In this document: positions 4,035 to 17,359 of the stretch, in pieces | Layout of the letters: each line of letters opens with the position of its first letter | Numbering within the stretch: position 1 is the stretch's first letter | Virus genome (UHGV): UHGV-1845973 | Length of the DNA stretch: 21,770 nucleotides | Source of the DNA: a virus | Direction: 5' to 3' (one strand) | Notes under the pieces: generated by a model | What the model was told of the DNA's origin: nothing | Seen by the model: only the letters and a program-made list of their open reading frames with translations | Databases searched by the model: none | Position numbers and translations under genes: made by a program

Positions 4035-5732
4035 GTGAATAAAAACATTCAGCCAGCTCGTGATCGCGAGCGCGAGATTATGAATCGGGCGGCAAGCGTC
4101 ATGGCTATGACCGTCGATCCGACCACCGATGCAGCAGGCAACATGATTGCTGACCAGGCAGTAATGATGGAAAACCTGGATAAAGCAATCCAGAAAGTGC
4201 CTATGTTTGAAGGCGTAAATCCAGAGGTCGCTCGTCAGATCACTGGTGGGTGGGCTATGTCTCTGCATGAGTATAAACGTCAACATGGTCATTACCCGGC
4301 AAGTGACATCCTGGCGAACGCACACATGGCTCTTGAACGCCTAATGACTGAATGTGCCAGTGATACCCACGAAGGCACGGGTAAGGCAATGTTTGAGTCT
4401 GTCGCGCAATCAATGCGTAGCTCTGACGGCGTAATGAAAGTTGCTCAATATGCTGCTCTAATTCTGCCTGCCTCTCTGGGCGCTGCTACCAGTGATGCCT
4501 GTACTTTTGTTCCTTGTGATCGTGACGAGTCAAATATTTATGAACTGGTCAACGTAGCAGGCACAAAATTCGGCACCTTCAAACAAGGTGACGAACTGAA
4601 TATGCAGTCAGCTGGTGTTTATTCTCAAATGAAGCGCCTGTATACCCTTTCCACTAAAGGGGATGGCAGCACCAAAACCTTCCAGTTCGACATCCAAAAT
4701 TTTGAGGGACAATCCTGCCCGCTTCGCGCTGGTTATAGCAAACTGCTGATCAACCGCAAACCGTCCAAAGTTGACGACGGCGATGGCAACCTTTATTTCA
4801 ATGCTAAAGACAGCAAAGGTAAAGCTTTCTCAGCGACTGCCAAAGTCGCCTATGACACTGGTGTCATTGACATTACATTTACCCAGGCTCCGCCAGAAGG
4901 TACTGAAATTGCTGTTCAGGTCGAAATTAACATCGAGCGCAATCCAAGCCTGATTCCTGTGATCAACCAGGCTATGCGTAAGTACGAAGTTCGTCCGTCC
5001 CAGTACGTAATTGCTTCCGAACACACGGTAATGTCCGCATCCGATTTAAGCCGTGAGCACGGCCTTGAATTAGCGGCACTTCAGTTCTCCGCGATGCGTA
5101 ACTGGATCTCCCATGAAACCGACATCATGCGTCTGCGCACCCTGGTATTCCATACCGTTTATGGTCGTGAATTTGATGTGGCTCTGCCGGAAGCTCAAAA
5201 CTATGAGTCCTGGGTCGGCCTCCTGCGTCACGTAGTAAACGCTCTGTCTCAAGAAATGGCAAATCGTACCCTGACAACGGGTATTCGTGGCGGCTTTGCT
5301 GGTGGTGACGCCGCGAACTTCCTGCGCTCTCTGCCTCCACAGCACTTCCAGATCGCACCAGGTTACGTTCAGTCGCCGTATGTACAGTACATCGGCACCC
5401 TGTTTGGCACGATTCGTATTTACGAAGTGCCGCAACCTGTCTGTGAGCAATTCCAGGCACAGGGATATGACTTCGGGCTGGATGACATCTTCTTCTATGG
5501 GCGTGGCGAAGGCATCGGTAAAGCCGGTCTGATTGCTGGTGATGCAGTCCCAGCAATCCCTTACGTGCACGAAACCAATCCGTCTCTCGTTAACCGTACC
5601 ACTCTCTGGGGCAGTGCCATCAACGAAGTACATCCTCGCAACGGTGAAAACTACTTCACCCGCCTGCGTCTGACTCGCGCCAAAGAAGGTGCTATCGACA
5701 TGCTGACAGGCAAGGTTAACGAAAAAAAGTGA
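4035..5732 (+). CDS. Putative major capsid protein precursor (large head protein)
   Basis: 565-aa ORF with GTG start, the first gene of the long + strand structural operon, immediately upstream of an Ig-like protein gene and the sheath gene. The functional call rests on position and size only. Confidence 0.55.
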   Translation: MNKNIQPARDREREIMNRAASVMAMTVDPTTDAAGNMIADQAVMMENLDKAIQKVPMFEGVNPEVARQITGGWAMSLHEYKRQHGHYPASDILANAHMALERLMTECASDTHEGTGKAMFESVAQSMRSSDGVMKVAQYAALILPASLGAATSDACTFVPCDRDESNIYELVNVAGTKFGTFKQGDELNMQSAGVYSQMKRLYTLSTKGDGSTKTFQFDIQNFEGQSCPLRAGYSKLLINRKPSKVDDGDGNLYFNAKDSKGKAFSATAKVAYDTGVIDITFTQAPPEGTEIAVQVEINIERNPSLIPVINQAMRKYEVRPSQYVIASEHTVMSASDLSREHGLELAALQFSAMRNWISHETDIMRLRTLVFHTVYGREFDVALPEAQNYESWVGLLRHVVNALSQEMANRTLTTGIRGGFAGGDAANFLRSLPPQHFQIAPGYVQSPYVQYIGTLFGTIRIYEVPQPVCEQFQAQGYDFGLDDIFFYGRGEGIGKAGLIAGDAVPAIPYVHETNPSLVNRTTLWGSAINEVHPRNGENYFTRLRLTRAKEGAIDMLTGKVNEKK

Positions 5733-5879: not shown

Positions 5880-6158
5880 ATGGCAAACATTCAAGTAACT
5901 ATCACGCCATCTGACGCAACAGACAAATCTTTCACTGTTGAGTCAGATCACCCTGAAATTGTCCGGGTTGATGGCACTACATGTACCGCTCTTAAGGCCG
6001 GGCAGGCAGTGCTGACAATCAAAACAAATGACGGCAATAAAACCGCACAGTGCACAGTCACTGTTAGGGAGGCACATAAAAGCGTAAGCACCGTCAGTGT
6101 TGAACCAACTACGAAAGAAGTAACCGTAGGCGATAACTTCACGGTAAGCCAATCCTGA
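5880..6158 (+). CDS. Bacterial Ig-like (Big_2-type) domain protein, candidate capsid decoration protein
   Basis: ITPSDATDKSFTVESDHPEIVRVDGTTCTALKAGQAVLTIKTNDGNKTAQCTVTV matches the Big_2 core pattern. RBS AGGAG 6 nt upstream of the ATG. Confidence 0.65.
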   Translation: MANIQVTITPSDATDKSFTVESDHPEIVRVDGTTCTALKAGQAVLTIKTNDGNKTAQCTVTVREAHKSVSTVSVEPTTKEVTVGDNFTVSQS

Positions 6159-6225: not shown

Positions 6226-7884
6226 ATGAATAAGATTAGTTTTTCGGTAGGGCAGGCAGCTGGCGTTGCTGTAATGTCAGTAAATGCTGACGCTACCCTC
6301 ACCAATACCAGCGGTGGCGCATCCGTCTTTGCTGGGCTTGTAATATCGCGTCGTGGCGCACCGGGTAAGGTACTGAAAGTTGACGATACGACTTATCAAA
6401 GCGTATTAGGTTCACCGATTCACCCTCGCCAGGGCGCGGCATTTGAACCATATCGCCACGTGGAGCGTGCAGTAAAAGGCGGCTCTGGATATGTCGTTCG
6501 AGTTTGCGCTAAAGACATGAAGGTGCCGGGTATTTCTGTTTCCGTTGTGGGCAAAGCAAAAGCGGCAAAGGCGAGCAAAGAACTTTCCGTTGAACCTACT
6601 GAAACCACAGTAAATCCAGGTGACACATTAAGCGTTGGTGTTGCTTCAACTGCAACGACTCAATCAGTGACCTTCACACCCAAAGAGACGCCCCAGATTA
6701 AAGGTGAAGAGAAGGCATTATTCTTCATCAAAGATGGTGATGCATCTCAAAATCGCACGTTATCACTAACTCGCGATGATGAAGAAAGCGAACTCTTTAC
6801 GCTGACGCTGAAAGAAAAACAAACCGATGGGTCCATTGAGGTGCTGGAAAGCCACCAAGTGTCTTTCAATCCAGAAGGCACCAACGACATGGGCCAACCA
6901 GCATGGATTCCGACACTGCTTGAAAGCCAGTCCACTCGCATTGGTGCCGTACTGGCAGATAATGCAGAAGCATCCGCTGCTCAACTCATTTTTGAGGATG
7001 TAGCTTTTGAAGGTGGTACTGATGGAAATCTGTCCGAAATTAACGCTGCAGACTATCTGGAAGCATTAAAGGTTCTCGAAGCTTCAGAGGTTAATTACAC
7101 CGCATTGCTGTCACTGGGTTGTTATGACGCATCCGCCTTAGCCGCAATCAAAAAGCTGGCTGAAGATGTTCGCGTAGACATGTTCTATGACCTGAAGGGC
7201 AACCAGACACCTGAAAACGCTATTTCAGAAGCGAAAAGCCATAGTTTTGGCGGCTCACATCAACCAAGCCGTTACTACTTCCCGCTCTCCTGCCGAGATA
7301 CCTTCACTGGGATGAATGTCGTCTATGGCATTAGTTGCGACGCATTCGTAGCAAAAGCAAAAGGGGTAGCGCTGGTACCGGATGTTGGTGGTTGGCATTA
7401 CGCACCGGCAGGTATATCACGCGCGATTATTGATCGACAGAACATTGCCCGAATTCCAAATATCGGTGCAGTTGATCGTGAAGCGTTCGTTCTTGCGCGC
7501 ATTAATCCGGTTTCAGTTGCTGCTGATGGGTCCGTTTACATTGACGACTCTTTAACAACTTACAGCAAAAACAACTATCTGCGATTCCAGCATGTGTCTT
7601 CCTTGATGAACGCCATCGCCAGAGATTTCTATGAAGTAGCTCAGGCGATTAAGCACGAACCGGATGGCATTACCAAAGAAACGCTAATGAAAGCAATGAC
7701 TGAATTGCTTGACCGTTACGTTGCAGCCGGTGCGCTGGTTACTCCACGTGACAAGTCCCAGGGTGAAGATCCATACGTTGTTCAGGTTGTCCAAAAGGAC
7801 ATCGATCTGTGGGAAGTGTCCTGGTCTGTTTGTCCGACCGGTACAGCTCGCCGAATCGTCGGTAAGCCAATTCTGATGCGCTGA
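6226..7884 (+). CDS. Tail sheath protein (contractile tail) with an internal Ig-like segment
   Basis: 552 aa. The C-terminal region GWHYAPAGISRAIIDRQ...ARINPVSVAADGSVYIDDSLTTY...LRFQHVSSLMNAI follows the conserved sheath C-terminal pattern (SPAG..RG / INP / V..GD.T / RINVRRL in T4 gp18-type sheaths). An N-proximal segment ELSVEPTETTVNPGDTLSVGV is Big_2-like. Confidence 0.8.
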   Translation: MNKISFSVGQAAGVAVMSVNADATLTNTSGGASVFAGLVISRRGAPGKVLKVDDTTYQSVLGSPIHPRQGAAFEPYRHVERAVKGGSGYVVRVCAKDMKVPGISVSVVGKAKAAKASKELSVEPTETTVNPGDTLSVGVASTATTQSVTFTPKETPQIKGEEKALFFIKDGDASQNRTLSLTRDDEESELFTLTLKEKQTDGSIEVLESHQVSFNPEGTNDMGQPAWIPTLLESQSTRIGAVLADNAEASAAQLIFEDVAFEGGTDGNLSEINAADYLEALKVLEASEVNYTALLSLGCYDASALAAIKKLAEDVRVDMFYDLKGNQTPENAISEAKSHSFGGSHQPSRYYFPLSCRDTFTGMNVVYGISCDAFVAKAKGVALVPDVGGWHYAPAGISRAIIDRQNIARIPNIGAVDREAFVLARINPVSVAADGSVYIDDSLTTYSKNNYLRFQHVSSLMNAIARDFYEVAQAIKHEPDGITKETLMKAMTELLDRYVAAGALVTPRDKSQGEDPYVVQVVQKDIDLWEVSWSVCPTGTARRIVGKPILMR

Positions 7885-7891
7885 TTTATAA

Positions 7892-7913
7892 CCCCCGCTA
7901 AATGATGCGGGGG
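7892..7913 (+). terminator. GC-rich hairpin (7-bp stem CCCCCGC/GCGGGGG, 8-nt loop) downstream of the sheath gene, no U-tract
   Basis: Perfect inverted repeat 8 nt after the sheath stop. It is followed by the RBS GAGAGAGG of the next gene. Confidence 0.3.
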
Positions 7914-7927
7914 AGAGAGGTTTGAAT

Positions 7928-8662
7928 ATGAAAAATTATACTGCTGATCCTTTTATGCGTGCGATTTTCGGTTCTGGCTGCTTTGAAAGCGGTGATAAAT
8001 CCACGCAGGACAATAATGATAACGCCATGCTGGAAAGCGCAGGACAGAAAGGAAAGGACACTCAACCAAAGCCCAAAGACGACATTGAAACCGCGATGAT
8101 GGAAGCGGTTGAATCCCGTGCACAAGGTGATATGCGCAGCCTGGCAGCTTCCATGCTTGCTGGTTGGGTTGAAGATGGTGATCCGGAGGCTGACTCATTT
8201 GATGCATTAGCAATCACTATGGCTGGCCTGGCTGATATCGATGAAGACACCGATTTCACCGATGAGCAAATCGATGCTTATAACGATGCACTCGCAGCTC
8301 TTGCTGATGCAGCTGTTGCGCTTGGCGCTGATCAGGATGATGTAACCGAAATGATCGACGATGAAGATGACTCAGCTGCCGAACGTGTTTATGACGCTCT
8401 TTCCGAAAGCGACACCGACATGATGGAAACAGCTATTGCCATTTACACCGTTGCTGGTGGTGATAGCGCAATGCTGGAAGCGGTACGTAAAAAAGTGGTT
8501 CGTGATGGCAAGGTAACCATCATCCGTAAACGCCCGCGTCCTCGCCGCATGACGTCATTGCAAAAACAGGCGCTGAAAAAAGCACGCCGCAAAGCACATA
8601 CATCCGTAGCGAATATCAACCGCAAAAAATCAATGCGCATTCGCAAAAAACGCGGTTTGTAA
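7928..8662 (+). CDS. Hypothetical virion-associated protein with a strongly acidic body and a strongly basic C-terminal tail
   Basis: 244 aa from ATG 7928 (RBS GAGAGAGG upstream). About 190 D/E-rich residues (e.g. MIDDEDDSAAE) are followed by the basic tail RKRPRPRRMTSLQKQALKKARRKAHTSVANINRKKSMRIRKKRGL. Confidence 0.55.
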   Translation: MKNYTADPFMRAIFGSGCFESGDKSTQDNNDNAMLESAGQKGKDTQPKPKDDIETAMMEAVESRAQGDMRSLAASMLAGWVEDGDPEADSFDALAITMAGLADIDEDTDFTDEQIDAYNDALAALADAAVALGADQDDVTEMIDDEDDSAAERVYDALSESDTDMMETAIAIYTVAGGDSAMLEAVRKKVVRDGKVTIIRKRPRPRRMTSLQKQALKKARRKAHTSVANINRKKSMRIRKKRGL

Positions 8663-8711
8663 GTGACATAGGCCGTCTGCAAAGGTGGCCTCTACCTGGG
8701 AGAAATAGCGT

Positions 8712-9302
8712 TTGATTTGCGGCGCGATAATGCCTGACGGAATAAGTCCGTTAATGAAGGTTTATATCCTCTCTTCAGAGGATATGGTCGTCGGTTATAT
8801 CGGTGAAGGATCTACCGCAGAACTGTCATCAATGTGGCAATCACCATTTGAAAACCAGTCAGTAGGAGGTTTGCTTGGTGGTATTAGCGCTGCGGCTGGC
8901 TCTCTTGCAGATACGCTTCAGACCGCAACCGGCGTAACAACAAAAACCCTCTTCAACTCAATGCTTGTTTGGGAAGGTCAGCAACCGCCTGAATTTAATC
9001 TGGTAATTGATTTCATGGCGACAACGAACGCGCAACTTGAAGTAAACGCAGCCATTACAGCATTGCTGAAGATGGAATCGCCGGAACTGAACAATGTAGC
9101 GCCATTCGGTCGTCGCCCGGAGACAGTAACGTTAAACATAGGTAGGAACATAGCCCTTACCGACGTTGTTATCAAAAGCGTGAGTTACCAACTGGACGCC
9201 CCACGCACACCGGAAGGCTATTTCACTCATAACACGGTAACCCTGCAATGCAGCGGAAACACCTCGATTAACCGTAGCAACATATCATCTGTTTTTGTGT
9301 AG
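8712..9302 (+). CDS. Hypothetical tail protein
   Basis: 196-aa ORF in the sheath-to-tape-measure interval. TTG start with GGGAG 9 nt upstream; internal ATGs at 8730 and 8754 are possible alternative starts. No motif recognised. Confidence 0.45.
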   Translation: MICGAIMPDGISPLMKVYILSSEDMVVGYIGEGSTAELSSMWQSPFENQSVGGLLGGISAAAGSLADTLQTATGVTTKTLFNSMLVWEGQQPPEFNLVIDFMATTNAQLEVNAAITALLKMESPELNNVAPFGRRPETVTLNIGRNIALTDVVIKSVSYQLDAPRTPEGYFTHNTVTLQCSGNTSINRSNISSVFV

Positions 9303-9310
9303 GAGTATTT

Positions 9311-9802
9311 ATGTCCGGTTTTGCAAATACAAAAGCCGATATCGCTTTTCTGAAATCCCGGTTGAACAAAAACCTGGCAGCGGGCGAAAAACTTATTGGT
9401 TCAGAATTCTGGATGACTATTAAAGGTTACGAAAAACTATCTGTACTTGTTCGTACCACTCAGTTGCCGGAAATGACTCGCGAAGACGTGGAAGACTATG
9501 GTCCTGGCGGCATGAAGATCAACCAGCACGGGCCATTGCGTAACTCAGGTGAATTCCAGGTTACCTGCTCTGAAACCATCGAAGGGGATGTTCTGGCCGC
9601 CGTAAAACAAATGGTATATGGCAAAGAATATCTGGAAATTACCTTACAGGCAGCGGCTGAATCCAATAGCGGTAACCATAAAGGTCTGATCCGCACATAT
9701 TATCACTGCAAAGTGTATTCCGACGCAGTGGACTTCTCCACCGAAGACGTAACAGCAGTCGTTAAGCCTTCCCTGCGTATTGTTTACAACTGGGTAGAGT
9801 GA
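9311..9802 (+). CDS. Hypothetical tail protein (tube-sized)
   Basis: 163 aa. RBS AGGAG 5 nt upstream of the ATG, tightly packed after the previous gene. Function inferred from position and size only. Confidence 0.5.
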   Translation: MSGFANTKADIAFLKSRLNKNLAAGEKLIGSEFWMTIKGYEKLSVLVRTTQLPEMTREDVEDYGPGGMKINQHGPLRNSGEFQVTCSETIEGDVLAAVKQMVYGKEYLEITLQAAAESNSGNHKGLIRTYYHCKVYSDAVDFSTEDVTAVVKPSLRIVYNWVE

Positions 9803-9807
9803 TCTCT

Positions 9808-9828
9808 TTCCCGCCCTTGTGGCGGGAA
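9808..9828 (+). terminator. GC-rich hairpin (8-bp stem TTCCCGCC/GGCGGGAA, 5-nt loop), weak T content downstream
   Basis: Perfect inverted repeat 6 nt after the stop at 9802. Confidence 0.3.
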
Positions 9829-9854
9829 CTCCTTGTATTTGAGTTGTAGGTACG

Positions 9855-10406
9855 ATGACACCAACCGAATTATTAGAAAGCGTTAAAGTACGATTTAATC
9901 CACTGCTTGTGCGTGAAGAAGAAACGCTGAAAGCCTTCCTGATCAAAGCTCTGACCACGTATCAGGACAGGGCAGGGGTAGTGAAAACGTTAAAACTTGA
10001 AAAAGCTGGTGGTACTGCAATCCCATTACCAGAAGATTATCTCTCTCTGGTTCATGTTACCGACAACAATGGCCTGTTGGTCTATTCGGATGAATTATCC
10101 GGATTTATTGAATTAGAGCTAACAGGTTCAGAACGCTGGCCTTTTCGAATGCTGTATCTGGTTAATCTACGCGACAGAAAGCTGGATGAATGGCAAGTGC
10201 CTCCTGCAATCATTGGAATGCTGGAGGAATATCTGGAGGCGCTTATCAATGTAAGAAATGTCGCCCGGCAGCGTAGAGCGTCCATCGACGGGAAATTTGA
10301 CTACTCCGATCTGCCCGATGAAGCCACGCTATATGCCCGCGTGCAGGAGATTGAGGAAAAAATGTCCTCAAACCGGGCCATTATTCCGGGGGCTACCATT
10401 TTTTAA
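9855..10406 (+). CDS. Hypothetical tail protein
   Basis: 183-aa ORF in the tail gene block. No motif recognised. Confidence 0.45.
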   Translation: MTPTELLESVKVRFNPLLVREEETLKAFLIKALTTYQDRAGVVKTLKLEKAGGTAIPLPEDYLSLVHVTDNNGLLVYSDELSGFIELELTGSERWPFRMLYLVNLRDRKLDEWQVPPAIIGMLEEYLEALINVRNVARQRRASIDGKFDYSDLPDEATLYARVQEIEEKMSSNRAIIPGATIF

Positions 10407-10421
10407 CGCTGGAGGCGCAGA

Positions 10422-11129
10422 GTGAGTATTTTCAGCAGCGTTGGTAGAACGTTGACCACCGCATTGTCATTTAACACGAAATCATTCACCAGCAACCTCA
10501 TTAGCGACATTCTTGATAAAGCCATATCAGGCGGCGGGGTAAGCGGGAATTACAGTAGCGATATTGCCTACGGGAAAAATATTGTTGCTGCCGCTATGCG
10601 TATCCGTTACGCCCAGGGGTGGCAGTGGACCGTTGAAGTGGATGGCCTGAACGGCTTCGATATGTTCGTGAAGGATATCACCTACAGCAGTGGAAACATT
10701 GAGACAGAAAGCAAGGTGATCGGCAGCGTAGAATTCAGCAAGCCAACCTATGTTAGCGCTGGACCGGTCACTATGACCGTGAGGGATACCGAAGATGGCA
10801 AGATCATGGACTGGTTCAAAGAGCGTCGTTCTCGTGTAACAAATCCTGATGGAACAATAAACCTTCCTCCGGAATATCTGATGAAAATCCGTGTCTACCG
10901 GGTAACTCAGGACGGCGGAAAAGAACTGGAAGAAGAAATGCGCGTATTTCCTACACAACTTGGGGAAATCACTCGCTCACGTGATCAGGTGTCAGAGTTC
11001 TTGTCATACCCAATCACTTTCCAGAAATACACATCTGCAGGCTCAGGTGTTTCTGCCTTGGTCAACGGTGCCGCTGGCATGGCTACAAGTGCGTTAAAGG
11101 GGGCTATCAGTGGAGTGATCAAATTCTGA
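10422..11129 (+). CDS. Hypothetical tail protein (possibly tube, spike or baseplate-associated)
   Basis: 235 aa. GTG start with RBS GGAGG 6 nt upstream. It is the last + strand structural gene before the replicon. Confidence 0.5.
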   Translation: MSIFSSVGRTLTTALSFNTKSFTSNLISDILDKAISGGGVSGNYSSDIAYGKNIVAAAMRIRYAQGWQWTVEVDGLNGFDMFVKDITYSSGNIETESKVIGSVEFSKPTYVSAGPVTMTVRDTEDGKIMDWFKERRSRVTNPDGTINLPPEYLMKIRVYRVTQDGGKELEEEMRVFPTQLGEITRSRDQVSEFLSYPITFQKYTSAGSGVSALVNGAAGMATSALKGAISGVIKF

Positions 11130-11363: not shown

Positions 11364-12224
11364 TTAATCTGTTGGTTTAAGTTTCGGATTCCGAGAGTGA
11401 ACGATAATGAAGTTTTCACGACCTTGCTTTTCAATGGTGCAATCGAGATAACCTATTGTTTTTAACTGGTCTATAGCTTTTTTTATCGTTCTGTTTTGCT
11501 CACTTACCGATGACATCAAGGCTAATCTTTCACGTATTCTGGCAAATGAAATAGGTATTGGACGTGCCGGGAGGCTTTCTATAAAGGTATATATGGCCTG
11601 GGCTGCTTCTTTTTTAGGTAAAGCGCGAAGTGCGTGTTGCTGTAGAAGCACCCGATAGTCTAGCTGGAAGATTTCCCATAACTTGGAATCAGCCTCCAGT
11701 TCAACGACATCTGTTTCAAAGTCAAAATATCCCGTTTTAAGCAGGCCAGTATTGTAGCTTCCACGAGCACTTTTCCCTCTTTTGAATGAGATGCCTTTGT
11801 TGCGTAACCGACCTAAAGAATCGTGGATCGTGTTTCTTAATTTCCCATCAAGTCGCTTAGATGGAAATCCGCACGCCTTTGCAAATTCTTGAAAAGAAAG
11901 GCGAATTGTATTCGATGATAAGCCATACTTGCTAAATGAGTAGATTACCCCAATCCAGACTTTGAAATCAGTATCCATGTCCAAGCGAGGGCCAGTGATC
12001 TTGATGTTGTCGTAGCCTTCTGCTTGAGCTATTTCCAATTTGGAAAAAACAGATGATGCATCTATCTCGTTGTTTTCACCCTGTTTTTTAGTTGGTTTAG
12101 GGACGAAAACACCAAGCCGCATAAGTGCGACAGGTTGAACAGTATTGTTCGAATTAACTGTTAATTCTTTAGCCTTGCTTTCAATGTCAGCATAAAGAAT
12201 ATCAGAGATAAATGACTTATCCAT
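11364..12224 (-). CDS. repA: RepA replication initiator, P1 / IncY-type iteron plasmid family
   Basis: 286 aa beginning MDKSFISDILYADIESKAKELTVNSN..., which I recognise as P1 RepA-like, and flanked on both sides by P1-type 19-bp iterons. ATG at 12224; the ORF track adds one upstream TTG codon. Confidence 0.9.
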   Translation of the reverse strand: MDKSFISDILYADIESKAKELTVNSNNTVQPVALMRLGVFVPKPTKKQGENNEIDASSVFSKLEIAQAEGYDNIKITGPRLDMDTDFKVWIGVIYSFSKYGLSSNTIRLSFQEFAKACGFPSKRLDGKLRNTIHDSLGRLRNKGISFKRGKSARGSYNTGLLKTGYFDFETDVVELEADSKLWEIFQLDYRVLLQQHALRALPKKEAAQAIYTFIESLPARPIPISFARIRERLALMSSVSEQNRTIKKAIDQLKTIGYLDCTIEKQGRENFIIVHSRNPKLKPTD

Positions 12225-12262
12225 CAATAAGTTACCGTCATGTTGTGAATAAAGTTTACGAC

Positions 12263-12578: not shown

Positions 12579-13400
12579 TTGAACATTCCAAAATTCCCAT
12601 TGCCTTCCCGTCCTGAGACAGAAATTCAGTTCCACGCCCCTACCGTGAAGGATGCGCTGAAATATTCTGACCTGAACCCGGCAGAAGATGAGGCAACTAC
12701 TACAGAGTACCTTAACTCTATGCAGGATGGTGAAATTAACGACAGTGCTTACTGGACAGTCCAGGATCGCAGAACTGCCCTTTGGTGGATATTTGTTAAT
12801 TCGCGCCCCGATGCAGTAATGACCTACTCCTATGAGTGCAGTCACTGCGGTAATACGCATCATGCAGATATTAACCTGAGCGACCTGGCCCAAACAGTAG
12901 AAATACTCACTGTACCTCCTTACGTGAAAACCAACGTACCAGTAAATGGAGTACCAACTGACTGGATACTTAAACCATTAACCGGGAAAGGTGCGGAACT
13001 CCTTGAACGAATGCGAGCGTCACTTCCTGATATGAAAAGTCCCGAATACAGTGCTGGCGTAGCACGGATGCGAATTGCTGAACTCGCTTTATGCACGGCG
13101 CTTGAAGACGATCCGGAGGACTTCACGCAGGCCGCTAACCGACGCTTTGACATCATTGAAAGCATGGCGCTTGAAACCGAATTTACTCCGCTTGTGGCTC
13201 GCATACAGCTTATGCAAAAAGACCTACGTCACGGCCTGAAAATGTCTATTGAGAGAGGCTCAAGCCGACTGATCCTGCCTCCGCAACATTGCAAAAACGC
13301 TAAGGAGGGTGCAGATGTGACAACCACACTGTACGTCCCCTTTCTCAATAGAGAGTTTATCCCATCAATTAGATCTGAATGGATGGCTAACCATTATTAA
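12579..13400 (+). CDS. Hypothetical protein with a Cys/His cluster, immediately upstream of the tape-measure gene
   Basis: 273 aa. TTG start with strong RBS GGAGG 6 nt upstream. Contains YECSHCGNTHHADINL. Possibly a tail assembly or tail structural protein by position. Confidence 0.5.
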   Translation: MNIPKFPLPSRPETEIQFHAPTVKDALKYSDLNPAEDEATTTEYLNSMQDGEINDSAYWTVQDRRTALWWIFVNSRPDAVMTYSYECSHCGNTHHADINLSDLAQTVEILTVPPYVKTNVPVNGVPTDWILKPLTGKGAELLERMRASLPDMKSPEYSAGVARMRIAELALCTALEDDPEDFTQAANRRFDIIESMALETEFTPLVARIQLMQKDLRHGLKMSIERGSSRLILPPQHCKNAKEGADVTTTLYVPFLNREFIPSIRSEWMANHY

Positions 13401-13414
13401 CAACCTGACTCTGT

Positions 13415-16400
13415 ATGGATATCAGCCCATTAGTGACGTTGAACAATTACCGCAATGGCGAGCACTCCATATGTCAAAAGCCCTGGAAGAAAAATACAAA
13501 GCTCAAGCCGGGAAACGTTGATCGCGCTGGTAAAAGAGAGGTTATTTTGAAAGAGAATAAAGACCGTATCGCAATAATTGACGCTATTCAGGAAGCGAGC
13601 ACAAACGAACTTAAAGCTCTTGCTGAGGTAAAAGACGCCATTCTTTCTGGGGCAAGCACCATAACTCAACAGGACGAAAGGCAAGGCAGAGTTAGCAACA
13701 GACTATCACGCAGGCGTAAAGAGTACGAGCAAAGTACATCTGATAGCGTTAGAGATGTCCAAACTAACCCATATAAAAAACGTCTCCCTGCTAAAAAGGA
13801 GAGGGCACCGATAAACCAAACCGTGGACCGCTCTATCGTTGCAACGAACACACCAGAAAGTGTTCGCTCCGTGCAATCACGTCAGACCATCCGAAAATCG
13901 GACGGTTTTATACCGGTAGCTGCTAATTCAGCCCCTCTTGAACCACAATCCCCCCAAAGTCTAAAAGGCCCGCTGCGGGATAGTAATGGACGTTTTGTAT
14001 CCCAAAAAAGCAATGAGGATGTAGCCAGAAAAAAAGAATTGCAGAACGCACGTAAAGCCGACGCAAAATTACAAGCTGGCTTTCTCAGAAAGCTAGGTTC
14101 CATTATGGGGGTAGATGGCAATCGGTCTTCCAGTGAAGAGTCTTTAACAAATGCAGCTGGTGTCGGTGCTGGTGGGCCGTTCTGGATGGCGGCTCGTGGC
14201 ATGTACGACATAACTAAAGAGATCACAGGTAAAGCAGAATCTCTTAAAGAATGGGTAGAAAAGGGGAAAAAAGAAACATCAACCTCGAAAGCAATATCAC
14301 CAGTAATTACTTATCCGGCGGCGGTGAATTCTCAAAAAGCAACATCTGCAAAAGCGTTCAATAACGCTGTTGAGACAAAATCCGCACAAGCAGTAGAAGA
14401 GCAAACCAAAATCCTTCAGACCAATGACAACAAAATAATTGATGGTCTGGAAAATGTTTCTGACGAGATAGTTAAGCTTCGGAAATCAGTGTCTTCTGGA
14501 AATAAGTTCGGCTTAAGTGATCTCTGGAAAAATCGAGCAAGCAGAAGAAATAAAATCAATATTGGTGATCAGACGGGAAAAAATAAACGGAACAAATCGA
14601 AAAGGAAAGGACGCAATCTTGGGAAAAAAGCACTCTCCGCTGGCGAAAAAGTTGCTGCCGGTAGCGCTGCGGCTGGCACTGGTGTCGGAGCAGCAAAAGT
14701 AGTTAAAAATAAGATCAGCAAACCCAAAGATGTAAGCACTATCAGCGATACATCAAAGGGGATTGCAAAGGAAACAAAAAATACTGCTAAGGCCGTGAAG
14801 TCAGCTGGTGTTGTGGCTGAAGATGCCACCATTAAAACCGGCGAAGCCATTGCAAAGAAAAAAACTGAATCTGTAGCCCTCAAAAGTGCTGCAAAAATAG
14901 GTGTTAAATCAGCAGCATCCACAGCGGCAAGAGCGGTCCCTATCATCGGTTCGCTGGCAATGGCTGGATATGACGCCATAGATGGTTACACAGATACAGA
15001 GGCGCAAAAGGCAGCCTTTGGATTAAGTGACGATAATGCTGTATCCGAACAGCAAAAAACGGCTTACGCAACAGCTAATGTGCTCGATATGGGGGGCTTG
15101 GTGTCGGGCGCAACGAACTTGATAGGGAAAGGAATTTCTGCGCTAGGATTTGAAAGAGCAGGTGAAAAACTTCAGAATTTTGATACCGGAGATATTGCTC
15201 GTGGTGTTAACGGCGCGGTAGATATCACCAAATCTGTTTTTGGTAGCCTTAAGGATACATTTTTATCCACTGATGAAAACACGAAACAAGTAAAAAAAGC
15301 TGTTGAAGACGGCACCAAAAAAACTGTCGATGCGATTCATTCTCTAGGTGAACAATTACAAGGTGGGCGTAATGGCGAGGATGGAGTTGGTGAGCACGGG
15401 TATACTTCTCCAACTGAATTTAGTGCACCTGCCAACAACACCATTGCAGCGGATCTGAATATTGGCGGCAGCAACGCTAAAAACCGCAATTACCGAAATA
15501 ATAATCTCGGCAATCTTGTTTTTGCCAACCAGGAAGGGGCGACGCTGGAATCGCCAAATGCAAAAGGTGAACAACGTTTTGCGCGATTTAACACACCTGA
15601 AGAAGGGATCAGGGCACTGGCAAACCAGGTTTCCAGCTATTACAACGGCACCAGTGCCGCAGCGGGATATCAGAAGTTACAGACGGTATCCAGCATCATT
15701 TCAAAATGGGCACCGCCAAATGAGAACAATACTAACCAATATATTGATAACGTCAGTAAATATCTTGGTGTATCGCCTAATGAAAAAATAGATGTCAGCA
15801 AACCAGAGGTTATGACGCAATTAGTTCGTGCAATTGCGACGAAAGAAGGCGGAAATCCGGCAGTTAATAATGAGTTCATTAAGAACGCACTTGGAGCATT
15901 TAACACAAACACTGGTCGATGGGAGGGACAATTCTCTGACGAAACATTGGCGCGGATTAATAAAATTCAGAAAGAAAATGGTGGTCAGCTAATTGCCCGC
16001 GATTCGCAATATAGTGTTGGTCGCAAGGTAAAATATGCTAATGGAAAATCTCCAGCTCAACCAGTTTTGAATGCCGTTCCGACAGCAACACAACAGCCAA
16101 TTGAGGTTGCACAACATGCCCAGGCAGTCAAAAAGCCACAAAAAACAGGTAACCAACCACAACCGATTAATCCAGAGAACGCTGATGTTAATACCGGCTC
16201 TCCATCGAGTTTGCTTGAGCGGTTAATCACAATAAATGAAAGCGGAATCAGTGGTGCAAGTAATTTATTTGGCGGCGCGGCTACCAGCCTTGCTGGAACA
16301 AGTCTGGACCTGGTAAAGGATTTTGCGTTGGCTACTTCGTTTGGTTCTATATCTTCGCTTTCCGAAAAAGCGAAAGGAATGGATCAGGCTCTTACTGAAA

Positions 16401-17359
16401 AGATATCCGGCTTAACCGGTAAATCTTTTGGATTTAAAATAGCTTCTCAAGTGGCTGATATCGCAACAGCCATACAACAAAAACGCACTGTTAATCACGA
16501 TACAGAAATCATTGATCTACTTCCGGGAGATCAAGTATCCCCTTCTACTCCGAAAACCCCACAGCAGGAGCAGGCTCTAGCAATCAGCCAGGCTATGGAG
16601 GGCTTTTCATCTGCAGCGCCAGCACCGAAAACCCCACAGCAGGAGCAGGCTCTAGCAATCAACCAGGCTATGGCGGGAGCTGCGCCAGTAGTTACCTCTG
16701 GAAAACGAACTATCACGGCACCAAGTGATGTGCAGATTTATGACAACGGCTACAAGGTGGTTACAGGTGAGGATAAGAGCTTCTTTGGTTCGCTATTTGA
16801 TTCCACGGTGTCAGGGCTTAAACAGACAGGAACCGCAGTAATTCCTGCCGTTGGCGATAACCTTTCACGACTTGTTGGGGGGATTGATAGTACAGGGATA
16901 TTGAACGATCTTGTAATGCAGTCTACTGGGCAGAATAGTGCGATTGCGCGAGCTATTAGCCCATTAACAAGAAATGTTGGAGACTGGCTGAATGGGGGGA
17001 TTCAACAAACCGCTAATAGCATTAGGGGAATAGCAACTGGTGCCAATAACGCCATATTTGGCTCTGCTTCAGCTGTGCAAGAACCTTTTCTTGCTATGCC
17101 GCCACAACTCCCTACTGTAACCGATCTCGCACGAAGCGGAATAAGACAACCATTAACTACTGACACTATAAATAACGATCCTGCTATGTTGAAGGCGCTG
17201 GATAACATCTGCTCTATCCTGAACGATCTGCTGAATGTGAACAAGAACAATACAAAAGGCGATCCGGATAATGTTGTCAAAACATCGCAGCCGCAGCCGC
17301 GACCACGTGCGAGCACAACTATTAATGACCAGTCGCTGGATGCTCTGCTTGAGGATTAA
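13415..17359 (+). CDS. Tail tape-measure protein with an embedded globular domain
   Basis: 1314 aa. Long Ala/Lys/Gly-rich low-complexity helical regions, central hydrophobic Gly-rich segments, and a position between tail genes and baseplate genes. A globular segment (about nt 15480..15900) differs from the rest. Confidence 0.8.
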   Translation: MDISPLVTLNNYRNGEHSICQKPWKKNTKLKPGNVDRAGKREVILKENKDRIAIIDAIQEASTNELKALAEVKDAILSGASTITQQDERQGRVSNRLSRRRKEYEQSTSDSVRDVQTNPYKKRLPAKKERAPINQTVDRSIVATNTPESVRSVQSRQTIRKSDGFIPVAANSAPLEPQSPQSLKGPLRDSNGRFVSQKSNEDVARKKELQNARKADAKLQAGFLRKLGSIMGVDGNRSSSEESLTNAAGVGAGGPFWMAARGMYDITKEITGKAESLKEWVEKGKKETSTSKAISPVITYPAAVNSQKATSAKAFNNAVETKSAQAVEEQTKILQTNDNKIIDGLENVSDEIVKLRKSVSSGNKFGLSDLWKNRASRRNKINIGDQTGKNKRNKSKRKGRNLGKKALSAGEKVAAGSAAAGTGVGAAKVVKNKISKPKDVSTISDTSKGIAKETKNTAKAVKSAGVVAEDATIKTGEAIAKKKTESVALKSAAKIGVKSAASTAARAVPIIGSLAMAGYDAIDGYTDTEAQKAAFGLSDDNAVSEQQKTAYATANVLDMGGLVSGATNLIGKGISALGFERAGEKLQNFDTGDIARGVNGAVDITKSVFGSLKDTFLSTDENTKQVKKAVEDGTKKTVDAIHSLGEQLQGGRNGEDGVGEHGYTSPTEFSAPANNTIAADLNIGGSNAKNRNYRNNNLGNLVFANQEGATLESPNAKGEQRFARFNTPEEGIRALANQVSSYYNGTSAAAGYQKLQTVSSIISKWAPPNENNTNQYIDNVSKYLGVSPNEKIDVSKPEVMTQLVRAIATKEGGNPAVNNEFIKNALGAFNTNTGRWEGQFSDETLARINKIQKENGGQLIARDSQYSVGRKVKYANGKSPAQPVLNAVPTATQQPIEVAQHAQAVKKPQKTGNQPQPINPENADVNTGSPSSLLERLITINESGISGASNLFGGAATSLAGTSLDLVKDFALATSFGSISSLSEKAKGMDQALTEKISGLTGKSFGFKIASQVADIATAIQQKRTVNHDTEIIDLLPGDQVSPSTPKTPQQEQALAISQAMEGFSSAAPAPKTPQQEQALAINQAMAGAAPVVTSGKRTITAPSDVQIYDNGYKVVTGEDKSFFGSLFDSTVSGLKQTGTAVIPAVGDNLSRLVGGIDSTGILNDLVMQSTGQNSAIARAISPLTRNVGDWLNGGIQQTANSIRGIATGANNAIFGSASAVQEPFLAMPPQLPTVTDLARSGIRQPLTTDTINNDPAMLKALDNICSILNDLLNVNKNNTKGDPDNVVKTSQPQPRPRASTTINDQSLDALLED
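16550..16680 (+). repeat. Tandem ~75-bp duplication inside the tape-measure gene
   Basis: CCGAAAACCCCACAGCAGGAGCAGGCTCTAGCAATCA[G/A]CCAGGCTATGG[A/C]GGG occurs at 16550 and again at 16625 with two mismatches (protein repeat KTPQQEQALAI[S/N]QAM[E/A]G). Confidence 0.75.

Follow-up and report, generated by a model that had tools for sequence, protein, structure and literature searches.

A conserved acidic/basic protein encoded after the sheath gene of a D6-like phage-plasmid is a probable head-protease substrate and candidate prohead core protein

The DNA analysed here, virus genome UHGV-1845973 (21,770 nucleotides; hereafter the window), comes from a D6-like phage-plasmid of the P1 family, and positions 7000–10500 are 96.7% identical in nucleotide sequence to Escherichia phage D6. 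Our subject is a 244-residue protein encoded directly after the tail sheath gene, the homologue of P1 gp21 (gene 21, YP_006524) and of D6 orf47 (YP_009914724), which we propose to be a prohead core protein processed by the head protease Pro. The late operon runs in the order capsid protein, immunoglobulin (Ig)-domain protein, sheath, gp21 homologue, PmgG, BplB, PmgC, Tub, repA (on the other strand), PmgB and Sit, the tape measure protein (Table 1). The ATG of the gp21 homologue lies 44 nt past the sheath stop codon; a first-pass annotation made from the sequence alone had described the gene as directly following the sheath gene. The TTG start at 7922 given by the open reading frame (ORF) finder was dropped in favour of the ATG at 7928 on the basis of ribosome-binding site spacing and the D6 annotation. 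A strong GC hairpin, CCCCCGC-N8-GCGGGGG, occupies window positions 7892–7913 between the sheath stop and the ribosome-binding site (−17.4 kcal/mol, z −3.4 relative to shuffled sequences). Lacking a T-run, it is not a classical terminator; with its 3′ arm touching the ribosome-binding site, it may tune expression or stabilise mRNA 3′ of the abundantly expressed sheath gene.

The protein is 100% identical in amino acid sequence to D6 orf47, the two genes having 3 nt differences, all synonymous, and is about 41–44% identical to P1 gp21 (tblastn matches over 74–87% of the query). These three are orthologues with the same acidic/basic layout and no structural difference, and the placement 3′ of the sheath gene and 5′ of pmgG and bplB is common to the window, D6 and P1. 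The whole protein matches PHROG 1053, a family of unknown function (E = 3.4e-85, residues 1–244 against profile positions 1–230 of 230); Pfam gave no match for the protein, for its basic tail, or for Pro. Relatives were found in 490 clusters by a profile search over 1.84 billion representative proteins, clustered at 50% identity, with a cut-off of E ≤ 1e-3. The gene is thus a member of a known but uncharacterised family.

The charges of the protein are sharply segregated. Residues 1–184 contain 46 D/E and 10 K/R (net −36, isoelectric point (pI) 4.05), and residues 185–244 contain 25 K/R and a single D/E (net +24, pI 12.0). The first-pass description of about 190 acidic residues followed by about 55 basic ones was accurate; its mention of long D/E runs slightly overstated a composition that is indeed very acidic, the longest run being DDEDD. 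Among 170 full-length relatives, net charge runs from −41 to −16 in the N-terminal part (median −32) and from +14 to +30 in the C-terminal module (median +22). The acidic/basic split is a trait of the family and not a chance feature, and the basic module is its best conserved part.

An AlphaFold2 model of the protein, made with the family alignment, had a mean predicted local distance difference test score (pLDDT) of 74. Disorder was predicted, at pLDDT below 50, for residues 1–7, 14–47 and 180–187. Helices extend across residues 50–176, with blocks from residue 61 to 160 at pLDDT 83–94, and the basic module has strands at 188–199 and helices at 210–242, the 10-residue blocks from 201 to 244 scoring 81–90. 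A Foldseek search of the model against the PDB and BFVD gave no match at E ≤ 0.001. Two marginal viral matches, one to Bacillus phage SP-15, are probably due to the similar sequence of the basic module rather than to a shared fold, an SP-15-type homologue, LIS04_64, also carrying the module. Nothing meaningful came from PDB sequence searches, whether the query was the profile of the gp21 homologue, the single Pro sequence or the Pro profile.

Table 1. Features of the locus. Positions refer to the window; a slash within a motif marks the mapped or predicted cleavage point.
Feature	Position	Strand	Remarks
gp23-like capsid protein gene	4035–5732	+	late operon
Capsid maturation site A118-M-F-E121/S122 in the gp23-like gene	4386–4397	+	comparator
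Small Ig-domain protein gene	5880–6158	+	late operon, between capsid and sheath genes
Sheath gene, gp22-like	6226–7884		stop codon 7882–7884
Ribosome-binding site GGAGAGAGG	7912–7920	+	7 nt upstream of ATG, read from sequence
Coding sequence of the 244-residue P1 gp21/D6 orf47 homologue	7928–8662	+	proposed prohead core protein
N-terminal peptide, residues 1–36	7928–8035	+	predicted disordered; ends at predicted site 1; E36 invariant in alignment
Predicted Pro site 1, A33-M-L-E36/S37	8024–8035	+	kept in 25/26 family sequences; within disordered segment
Predicted Pro site 2, A56-M-M-E59/A60	8093–8104	+	kept in 23/26 family sequences
Acidic helical core, residues 60–184	8105–8479	+	125 residues, net −32, pI 4.05
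Predicted Pro site 3, A181-M-L-E184/A185	8468–8479	+	kept in 25/26; E184 invariant; disordered linker just before basic module
Basic C-terminal module, residues 185–244	8480–8659	+	net +24, pI 12; beta-hairpin + two helices
PmgG gene	8712–9302		late operon
BplB tube protein gene	9311–9802	+	late operon
pmgB homologue	12579–13400		
Tape measure gene (Sit)	13415–17359	+	follows pmgB homologue

In databases, P1 gene 21, D6 orf47 and their relatives are labelled ‘baseplate or tail tube’, ‘tail tube protein Gp21’ or ‘tail protein’. The first-pass annotation had already argued that this is not the tube protein expected after a sheath gene, and the present results agree. The PHROG tube families match BplB and Tub and not the gp21 homologue, and its model, helical with one hairpin, has no tube-type beta-sandwich. 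Electron cryomicroscopy (cryo-EM) of the P1 tail assigned the tube to BplB (PMC10304247). In the 2026 structure of the whole P1 virion, the initiator, linker, hub, spikes, plug, wedges, adaptor, stopper and portal are other proteins, and gp21 is unmentioned (PMC12810830). The tail labels are not supported by structure prediction, by the P1 cryo-EM models, or by the motif analysis below. In the table of P1 virion proteins identified by liquid chromatography–mass spectrometry (LC-MS), the products of the flanking genes, BplB, PmgG, gp22 and gp23, are present and gp21 is absent (PMC9024508). This absence says little, because in-silico tryptic digestion of P1 gp21 leaves few usable peptides: only 5 of 7–35 residues, 3 of which span predicted Pro sites, with the acidic core forming one 102-residue peptide.

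The sole experimentally mapped P1 head-protease site lies in the capsid protein gp23, which is cleaved at E120/S121 as mapped by Edman sequencing (PMC9024508). This site reads AMLE/S in P1 and AMFE/S in the window. The family alignment identified three conserved A-M-[LM]-E copies in the gp21 homologue: AMLE/S at 33–37, AMME/A at 56–60 and AMLE/A at 181–185. The annotated D6 proteome (115 proteins, 27,078 residues) contains nine occurrences of the pattern M-[LFMIV]-E-[SA], four in Pro, one in DarA, one in the capsid protein and three in the gp21 homologue, with none in any other protein; shuffling the whole proteome gave a mean of 2.2. For the gp21 homologue alone, 0.046 motifs were expected, and the three observed were reached in 0 of 2000 shuffles. 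Translation of the window in six frames yields four copies of the motif, of which three lie in this ORF and one at the capsid site. The D6 DarA motif aligns with LLE68/A69 of P1 DarA, and residues 1–69 are absent from the cryo-EM model of P1 DarA (PMC12810830), for which Edman sequencing gave no cleavage site. Hdf, reported to be unprocessed, has no motif. Being present in the known Pro substrates and absent from Hdf, the motif tracks known Pro substrates. From these sequences, the head-protease motif of D6 would be [A]-M-[LFM]-E/[SA], or more broadly hydrophobic-x-E/D, with exact cleavage sites predicted in DarA and Pro.

The conservation counts in Table 1 were made with the T4-type pattern [LIM]-x-E-small in 26 diverse family members. 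In the wider set of relatives, a cleavage-like site lies at most 14 residues upstream of the basic module in 161 of 170. Two further motif-like sites, VMME/N (44–47) and PMFE/G (57–60), lie upstream of the maturation site in the capsid delta domain (window positions 4035–4397, residues 1–121), which suggests that the delta domain may be cut into pieces, as in T4. The P1 portal protein Prt (L005:12751-14460) has I-L-E/S at 557–560, inside the C-terminal segment 534–569 that is invisible in the cryo-EM map; this could be another Pro site, or chance.

Evidence that the capsid protein and the gp21 homologue are read by one protease comes from covariation of their sites. Relatives and their gene neighbourhoods were collected from IMG/VR and from assemblies, giving 51 distinct sequences with a capsid gene on the same contig. 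With a capsid site of AM[FL]E/S, the sites in the gp21 family are AM[LMF]E/[SA]. Where the capsid site is MLLE/S, they are MLLE/S, LLLE/A and ELFE/A; GIFE/A is paired with LILE/N and TILE/A, MVLE/S with IVFE/T and TILE/A, and LVLE/S with DIFE/A and SIFE/S. Lineages with the capsid sites VTLD/S (AMLD/A and EMLD/A in the gp21 family) and QLLD/A (LTLD/S and QVLD/A) have Asp in place of Glu in both proteins. Within a genome, therefore, the two sets of sites switch together, from M to L/I/V and from E to D. The lineages are related, so that the counts do not represent independent events, but the joint switches are hard to explain unless a single protease reads both proteins. The gp21 homologue is a predicted Pro substrate because its three sites are of the same type as the mapped capsid site, a type confined in D6 to Pro substrates, and covary with it.

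A model of Pro, made with its own family alignment, had its best fold matches among the herpesvirus proteases (assemblins) and T4 gp21 (PDB 5JBL). The scores were marginal but consistent, and the model points to an assemblin fold for Pro. The T4 gp21 protease cuts after Glu in L/I-x-E, a site type like that of the gp21 homologue (PMC9958956, PMC9026906). T4 and the P1/D6-type phages would thus be alike in having an assemblin-fold protease that cuts after Glu. The D6 pro gene (L003:22494-23492, minus strand) lies outside the window and encodes an assemblin-like N-terminal domain, about residues 1–155, followed by an extension of ~160 residues with a very long predicted helix (191–263) and four conserved copies of its own motif (LMLE/S, AMLE/S, AMME/S and AMLE/S). 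Pro looks like a protease–scaffold fusion that trims itself. The label ‘tail fiber protein’ given to Pro (PHROG 1801 and the D6 RefSeq record) was rejected as wrong.

T4 itself has a prohead protein with the layout seen here. T4 gp68 (141 residues; PHROG 1049, PF26830) has an acidic N-terminal half with L/I-x-E sites, L-N-E at the junction, and a basic C-terminal half ending in RRKALGLS. It is a component of the prohead core, present in ~240 copies, non-essential, degraded by the T4 gp21 protease and probably involved in head-size determination (PMC9958956, PMC9026906). When a 30-member alignment of the gp21 family was compared with a 12-member gp68 alignment by hhalign, residues 187–244 were aligned with gp68 residues 70–141, in register to the C-terminal GL, with a probability of 88–90% and E of 1.5–2.9e-6. 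To control for score inflation by low-complexity basic sequence, we permuted columns 200 times within the basic part of the gp68 alignment. The observed score was 45.0, compared with a mean of 20.8 for the permutations (standard deviation 4.9, maximum 37.7) and 16.2 for the reversed alignment. A relationship between the basic module and the C-terminal half of T4 gp68 is probable rather than proven; no match to PHROG 1049 was found. The two proteins differ in length (244 compared with 141 residues), the gp21 homologue having an extra helical acidic domain of ~125 residues, and in gene position, since T4 gene 68 lies between the portal and protease genes and the gene studied here between the sheath and tube-initiation genes.

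The basic module also occurs in LIS04_64 of the Thornevirus Listeria phage LIS04, flanked by L-E-E and I-K-E; gene 64 of this phage lies in a head–neck block and adjoins a T4-type protease and a capsid gene. Some of the relatives P0194, P0249 and P0262 have two basic modules, and one, from a lineage with Asp in place of Glu, has an N-terminal extension of ~200 residues that holds most of its six [ILV]-L-D sites (pattern count). The acidic part of the gp21 homologue resembles T4 gp22 (269 residues, pI 4.58, 16 L/I-x-E sites) and gp67, which are likewise acidic and helical and are removed by the head protease. Unlike the gp21 homologue, T4 gp22 has no basic tail, and hhalign gave probabilities of only 0.5% for gp22 and 0.2% for gp67, so that no sequence relationship is detectable. 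In P22 gp8 and the herpesvirus scaffolds, docking to the coat protein is the task of a C-terminal, positively charged element, either a helix-turn-helix or a short tail. The herpesvirus protease cuts just upstream of this docking tail and so releases the scaffold, whereas the P22 scaffold is recycled and not cleaved. Site 3 followed by two basic helices has the same geometry, but no sequence or fold match to these scaffolds was found.

We propose that the gp21 homologue is a gp68-like protein of the prohead interior that is processed by Pro, a reading to which we give a probability of about 0.68. The analysis shows the lineage-specific motif that the protein shares with the mapped capsid site, its gp68-like architecture and C-terminal module, and the lack of a place for it in the solved P1 tail and baseplate. 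Its cleavage and its location in the prohead are inferred, as are the later fate of its fragments and any effect on head size. Any specific role, such as head-size control, is proposed with lower confidence than membership of the core. The protein would be made late, from the capsid–sheath operon, and would become part of the interior of the immature head along with Pro, DarA and the capsid protein's N-terminal delta domain. Its conserved basic C-terminal module would probably dock it to the shell, to another core component or, at a later stage, to DNA; besides the shell and DNA, candidate partners are the delta domain of the capsid protein, the portal and the long helix at the C-terminus of Pro. 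Activated Pro would then cut after E36, E59 and E184, and the core would be taken apart before DNA packaging or in the course of it. The products would be two short peptides from the N-terminus, an acidic domain of 13 kDa and a basic peptide of 7 kDa. On this view the protein would correspond to T4 gp68 with an acidic helical domain added. From the roles listed in the first-pass annotation, the evidence favours an internal or scaffolding protein and lends no support to a tail-assembly factor or a DNA mimic. A match to a known scaffold family together with absence from virions, the outcome which that annotation had set against its own suggestions, is largely what was found, in that the basic tail aligns with T4 gp68 and P1 gp21 is not in the virion proteome table, the gp68 link being only probable.

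The same location and the same processing could serve a different purpose. The essential product might be the 60-residue basic module, which, once released by Pro, would stay on the DNA in the filled head as adenovirus pVII and mu or a protamine do; the acidic part would then be a removable, neutralising pro-piece. This would fit the cleavage site at the acidic/basic boundary in nearly all relatives, the charge of the module and its standing as the best conserved part of the family, and also its presence, singly or in duplicate and flanked by L/I-x-E sites, in proteins that otherwise differ (P0194, P0249 and LIS04_64). The P1 head does hold unassigned low-resolution density (PMC12810830), and the module would be invisible to tryptic LC-MS. 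The well-conserved, specific sequence of the module and its confidently predicted fold, however, suggest a defined protein partner and not generic DNA coating, and T4 gp68 is described as being degraded to small peptides, most of which leave the head (PMC9958956, PMC9026906). We consider a DNA-bound peptide unlikely as the purpose of the protein. A broader version, in which the module is a widespread and so far unrecognised phage ‘protamine’, released, retained on packaged DNA and perhaps ejected, common to P1-like phage-plasmids, T4-like phages (gp68) and Thornevirus jumbo phages, seems to us distinctly unlikely; such a protein would escape routine proteomics because trypsin reduces the basic module to very small fragments.

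Several observations weigh against the core protein proposal. P1 gp21 has a looser motif (L-M-E, I-L-E, L-T-E) with weaker enrichment, 4 observed compared with 0.66 expected (p about 0.002). The gp68 alignment covers only ~58 highly basic residues and falls below the usual comfort level of 95%, and an HMMER profile of the module gave a non-significant E of 0.24 for T4 gp68. For the acidic domain the model predicts a compact bundle, not the elongated coiled coil of classical scaffolds; a classical coiled-coil capsid scaffold is for this reason disfavoured as the sole description of the protein. The gene also lies outside the portal–protease–scaffold–capsid block, with the D6 pro and portal genes ~25 kb away, and in most lineages it is found between the sheath and tail-tube-initiation genes. 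This last objection is a weaker one, since the operon already mixes capsid and sheath genes, the gene of a distant relative follows terminase, and the Thornevirus homologue is in a head–neck block. In that distant, metagenomic relative (L008:7071-10768), the gp21-like gene stands not after a sheath gene but after pacA, pacB and a 59-residue ORF, and an IS605-type transposase comes next.

The remaining objections are genetic, and the main one is the classical P1 work behind the tail label. In a CRISPR interference (CRISPRi) screen P1 gene 21 was scored essential, knock-down abolishing plaques, whereas T4 gp68 is non-essential (PMC10695390). This result is uninformative, because repression of gene 21 is polar on the essential genes pmgG and bplB, and the authors of the screen themselves call such results uninformative. 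Amber mutants of gene 21 have been reported, along with the classical annotation ‘baseplate or tail tube’ (PMC10695390). A full-text literature search for a P1 gene 21 phenotype found nothing. The label reportedly goes back to the mutant study of Walker and Walker in 1983, with amber lysates that are reported to have contained heads and no tails. The amber ‘tail’ phenotype is plausibly a polar effect on pmgG and bplB, and the classical alleles may lie in pmgG or bplB instead.

These genetic data would also suit a tail or baseplate assembly factor, that is, a non-structural chaperone of the baseplate–tube complex in which the M-x-E motifs are coincidental features of helices. The classical annotations of P1 and D6 fit such a factor, as do its absence from virions and the order sheath, gp21 homologue, pmgG, bplB, which is kept in distant lineages. 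Tail assembly chaperones are typically acidic; those of the lambda gpG/GT type are, like the gp21 homologue, encoded among tail genes and absent from virions. They precede the tape measure gene, however, and the gp21 homologue does not and carries head-protease motifs. It is PmgB, the proposed P1 chaperone of this type, that stands before the tape measure gene, with five genes, including repA, between the gp21 homologue and the latter. No overlapping extension ORF of the kind produced by tail-chaperone frameshifting was noticed in the ORF list, which was not a dedicated frameshift test. Amber mutations and CRISPRi roadblocks in this ORF, being polar on pmgG and bplB, would mimic a no-tube or no-baseplate phenotype. 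Coincidence accounts neither for the confinement of the motif to Pro substrates nor for E-to-D and M-to-L/I/V changes that run parallel to those of the capsid site, and a tail assembly factor leaves the gp68-like module unexplained. We regard this explanation as quite improbable.

The first-pass annotation had also suggested an anti-restriction DNA mimic. In such a scheme the acidic domain would be set free in the head and leave it with the ejected DNA, to block host restriction enzymes in the manner of Ocr or ArdA, which are likewise small and very acidic. With 125 residues and a net charge of −32 the domain is of a suitable kind, and P1-like heads do carry ejected anti-restriction proteins, those of the Dar system. 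No fold or sequence similarity to any solved mimic was found, however, in the PDB sequence search or by Foldseek against the PDB and BFVD, and the Dar studies consulted, which define the components of restriction protection (including PMC12810830), do not mention gp21. Conserved and syntenic across ~490 clusters, the gene has the character of a core morphogenetic gene and not of a variable accessory one. A DNA mimic is very improbable.

Elsewhere in the window, repA, which encodes a plasmid replication initiator of the Rep3 family (11364–12227, minus strand), lies on the opposite strand within the run of tail genes, in the interval between tub and pmgB. The bplB gene differs from that of D6 at 64 of 492 nt (12 amino acids), compared with only 3–16 nt in each of the neighbouring genes, a divergence that suggests a recombinational patch. 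Sit has 1314 residues in the window and 1260 in D6, a difference that would imply a slightly longer tail. The Ig-domain protein, of 92 residues, is Ig-like (Big_2). P1 has no gene at that place and is said to have no decoration protein, and the Ig-like protein may be a head decoration protein of the D6 lineage.

What is new here is the re-assignment of the gp21 family from the tail to the head core, the protease motif with its predicted sites, and the probable link to gp68. If the proposal is true, it corrects a long-standing and database-wide label of P1 gene 21 and several hundred relatives. The papers on the P1 proteome and the whole virion state that P1 has no separate scaffolding protein (PMC9024508, PMC12810830), and the gp21 homologue is a concrete candidate for the scaffold or core protein that is missing from their account. 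Heads of three sizes are made naturally by P1, and an influence of T4 gp68 on head size is considered likely. P1 is also under development as a protein-delivery vehicle that uses capsid-targeting signals, for which a full list of head-internal proteins and their cleavage sites would be of practical use.

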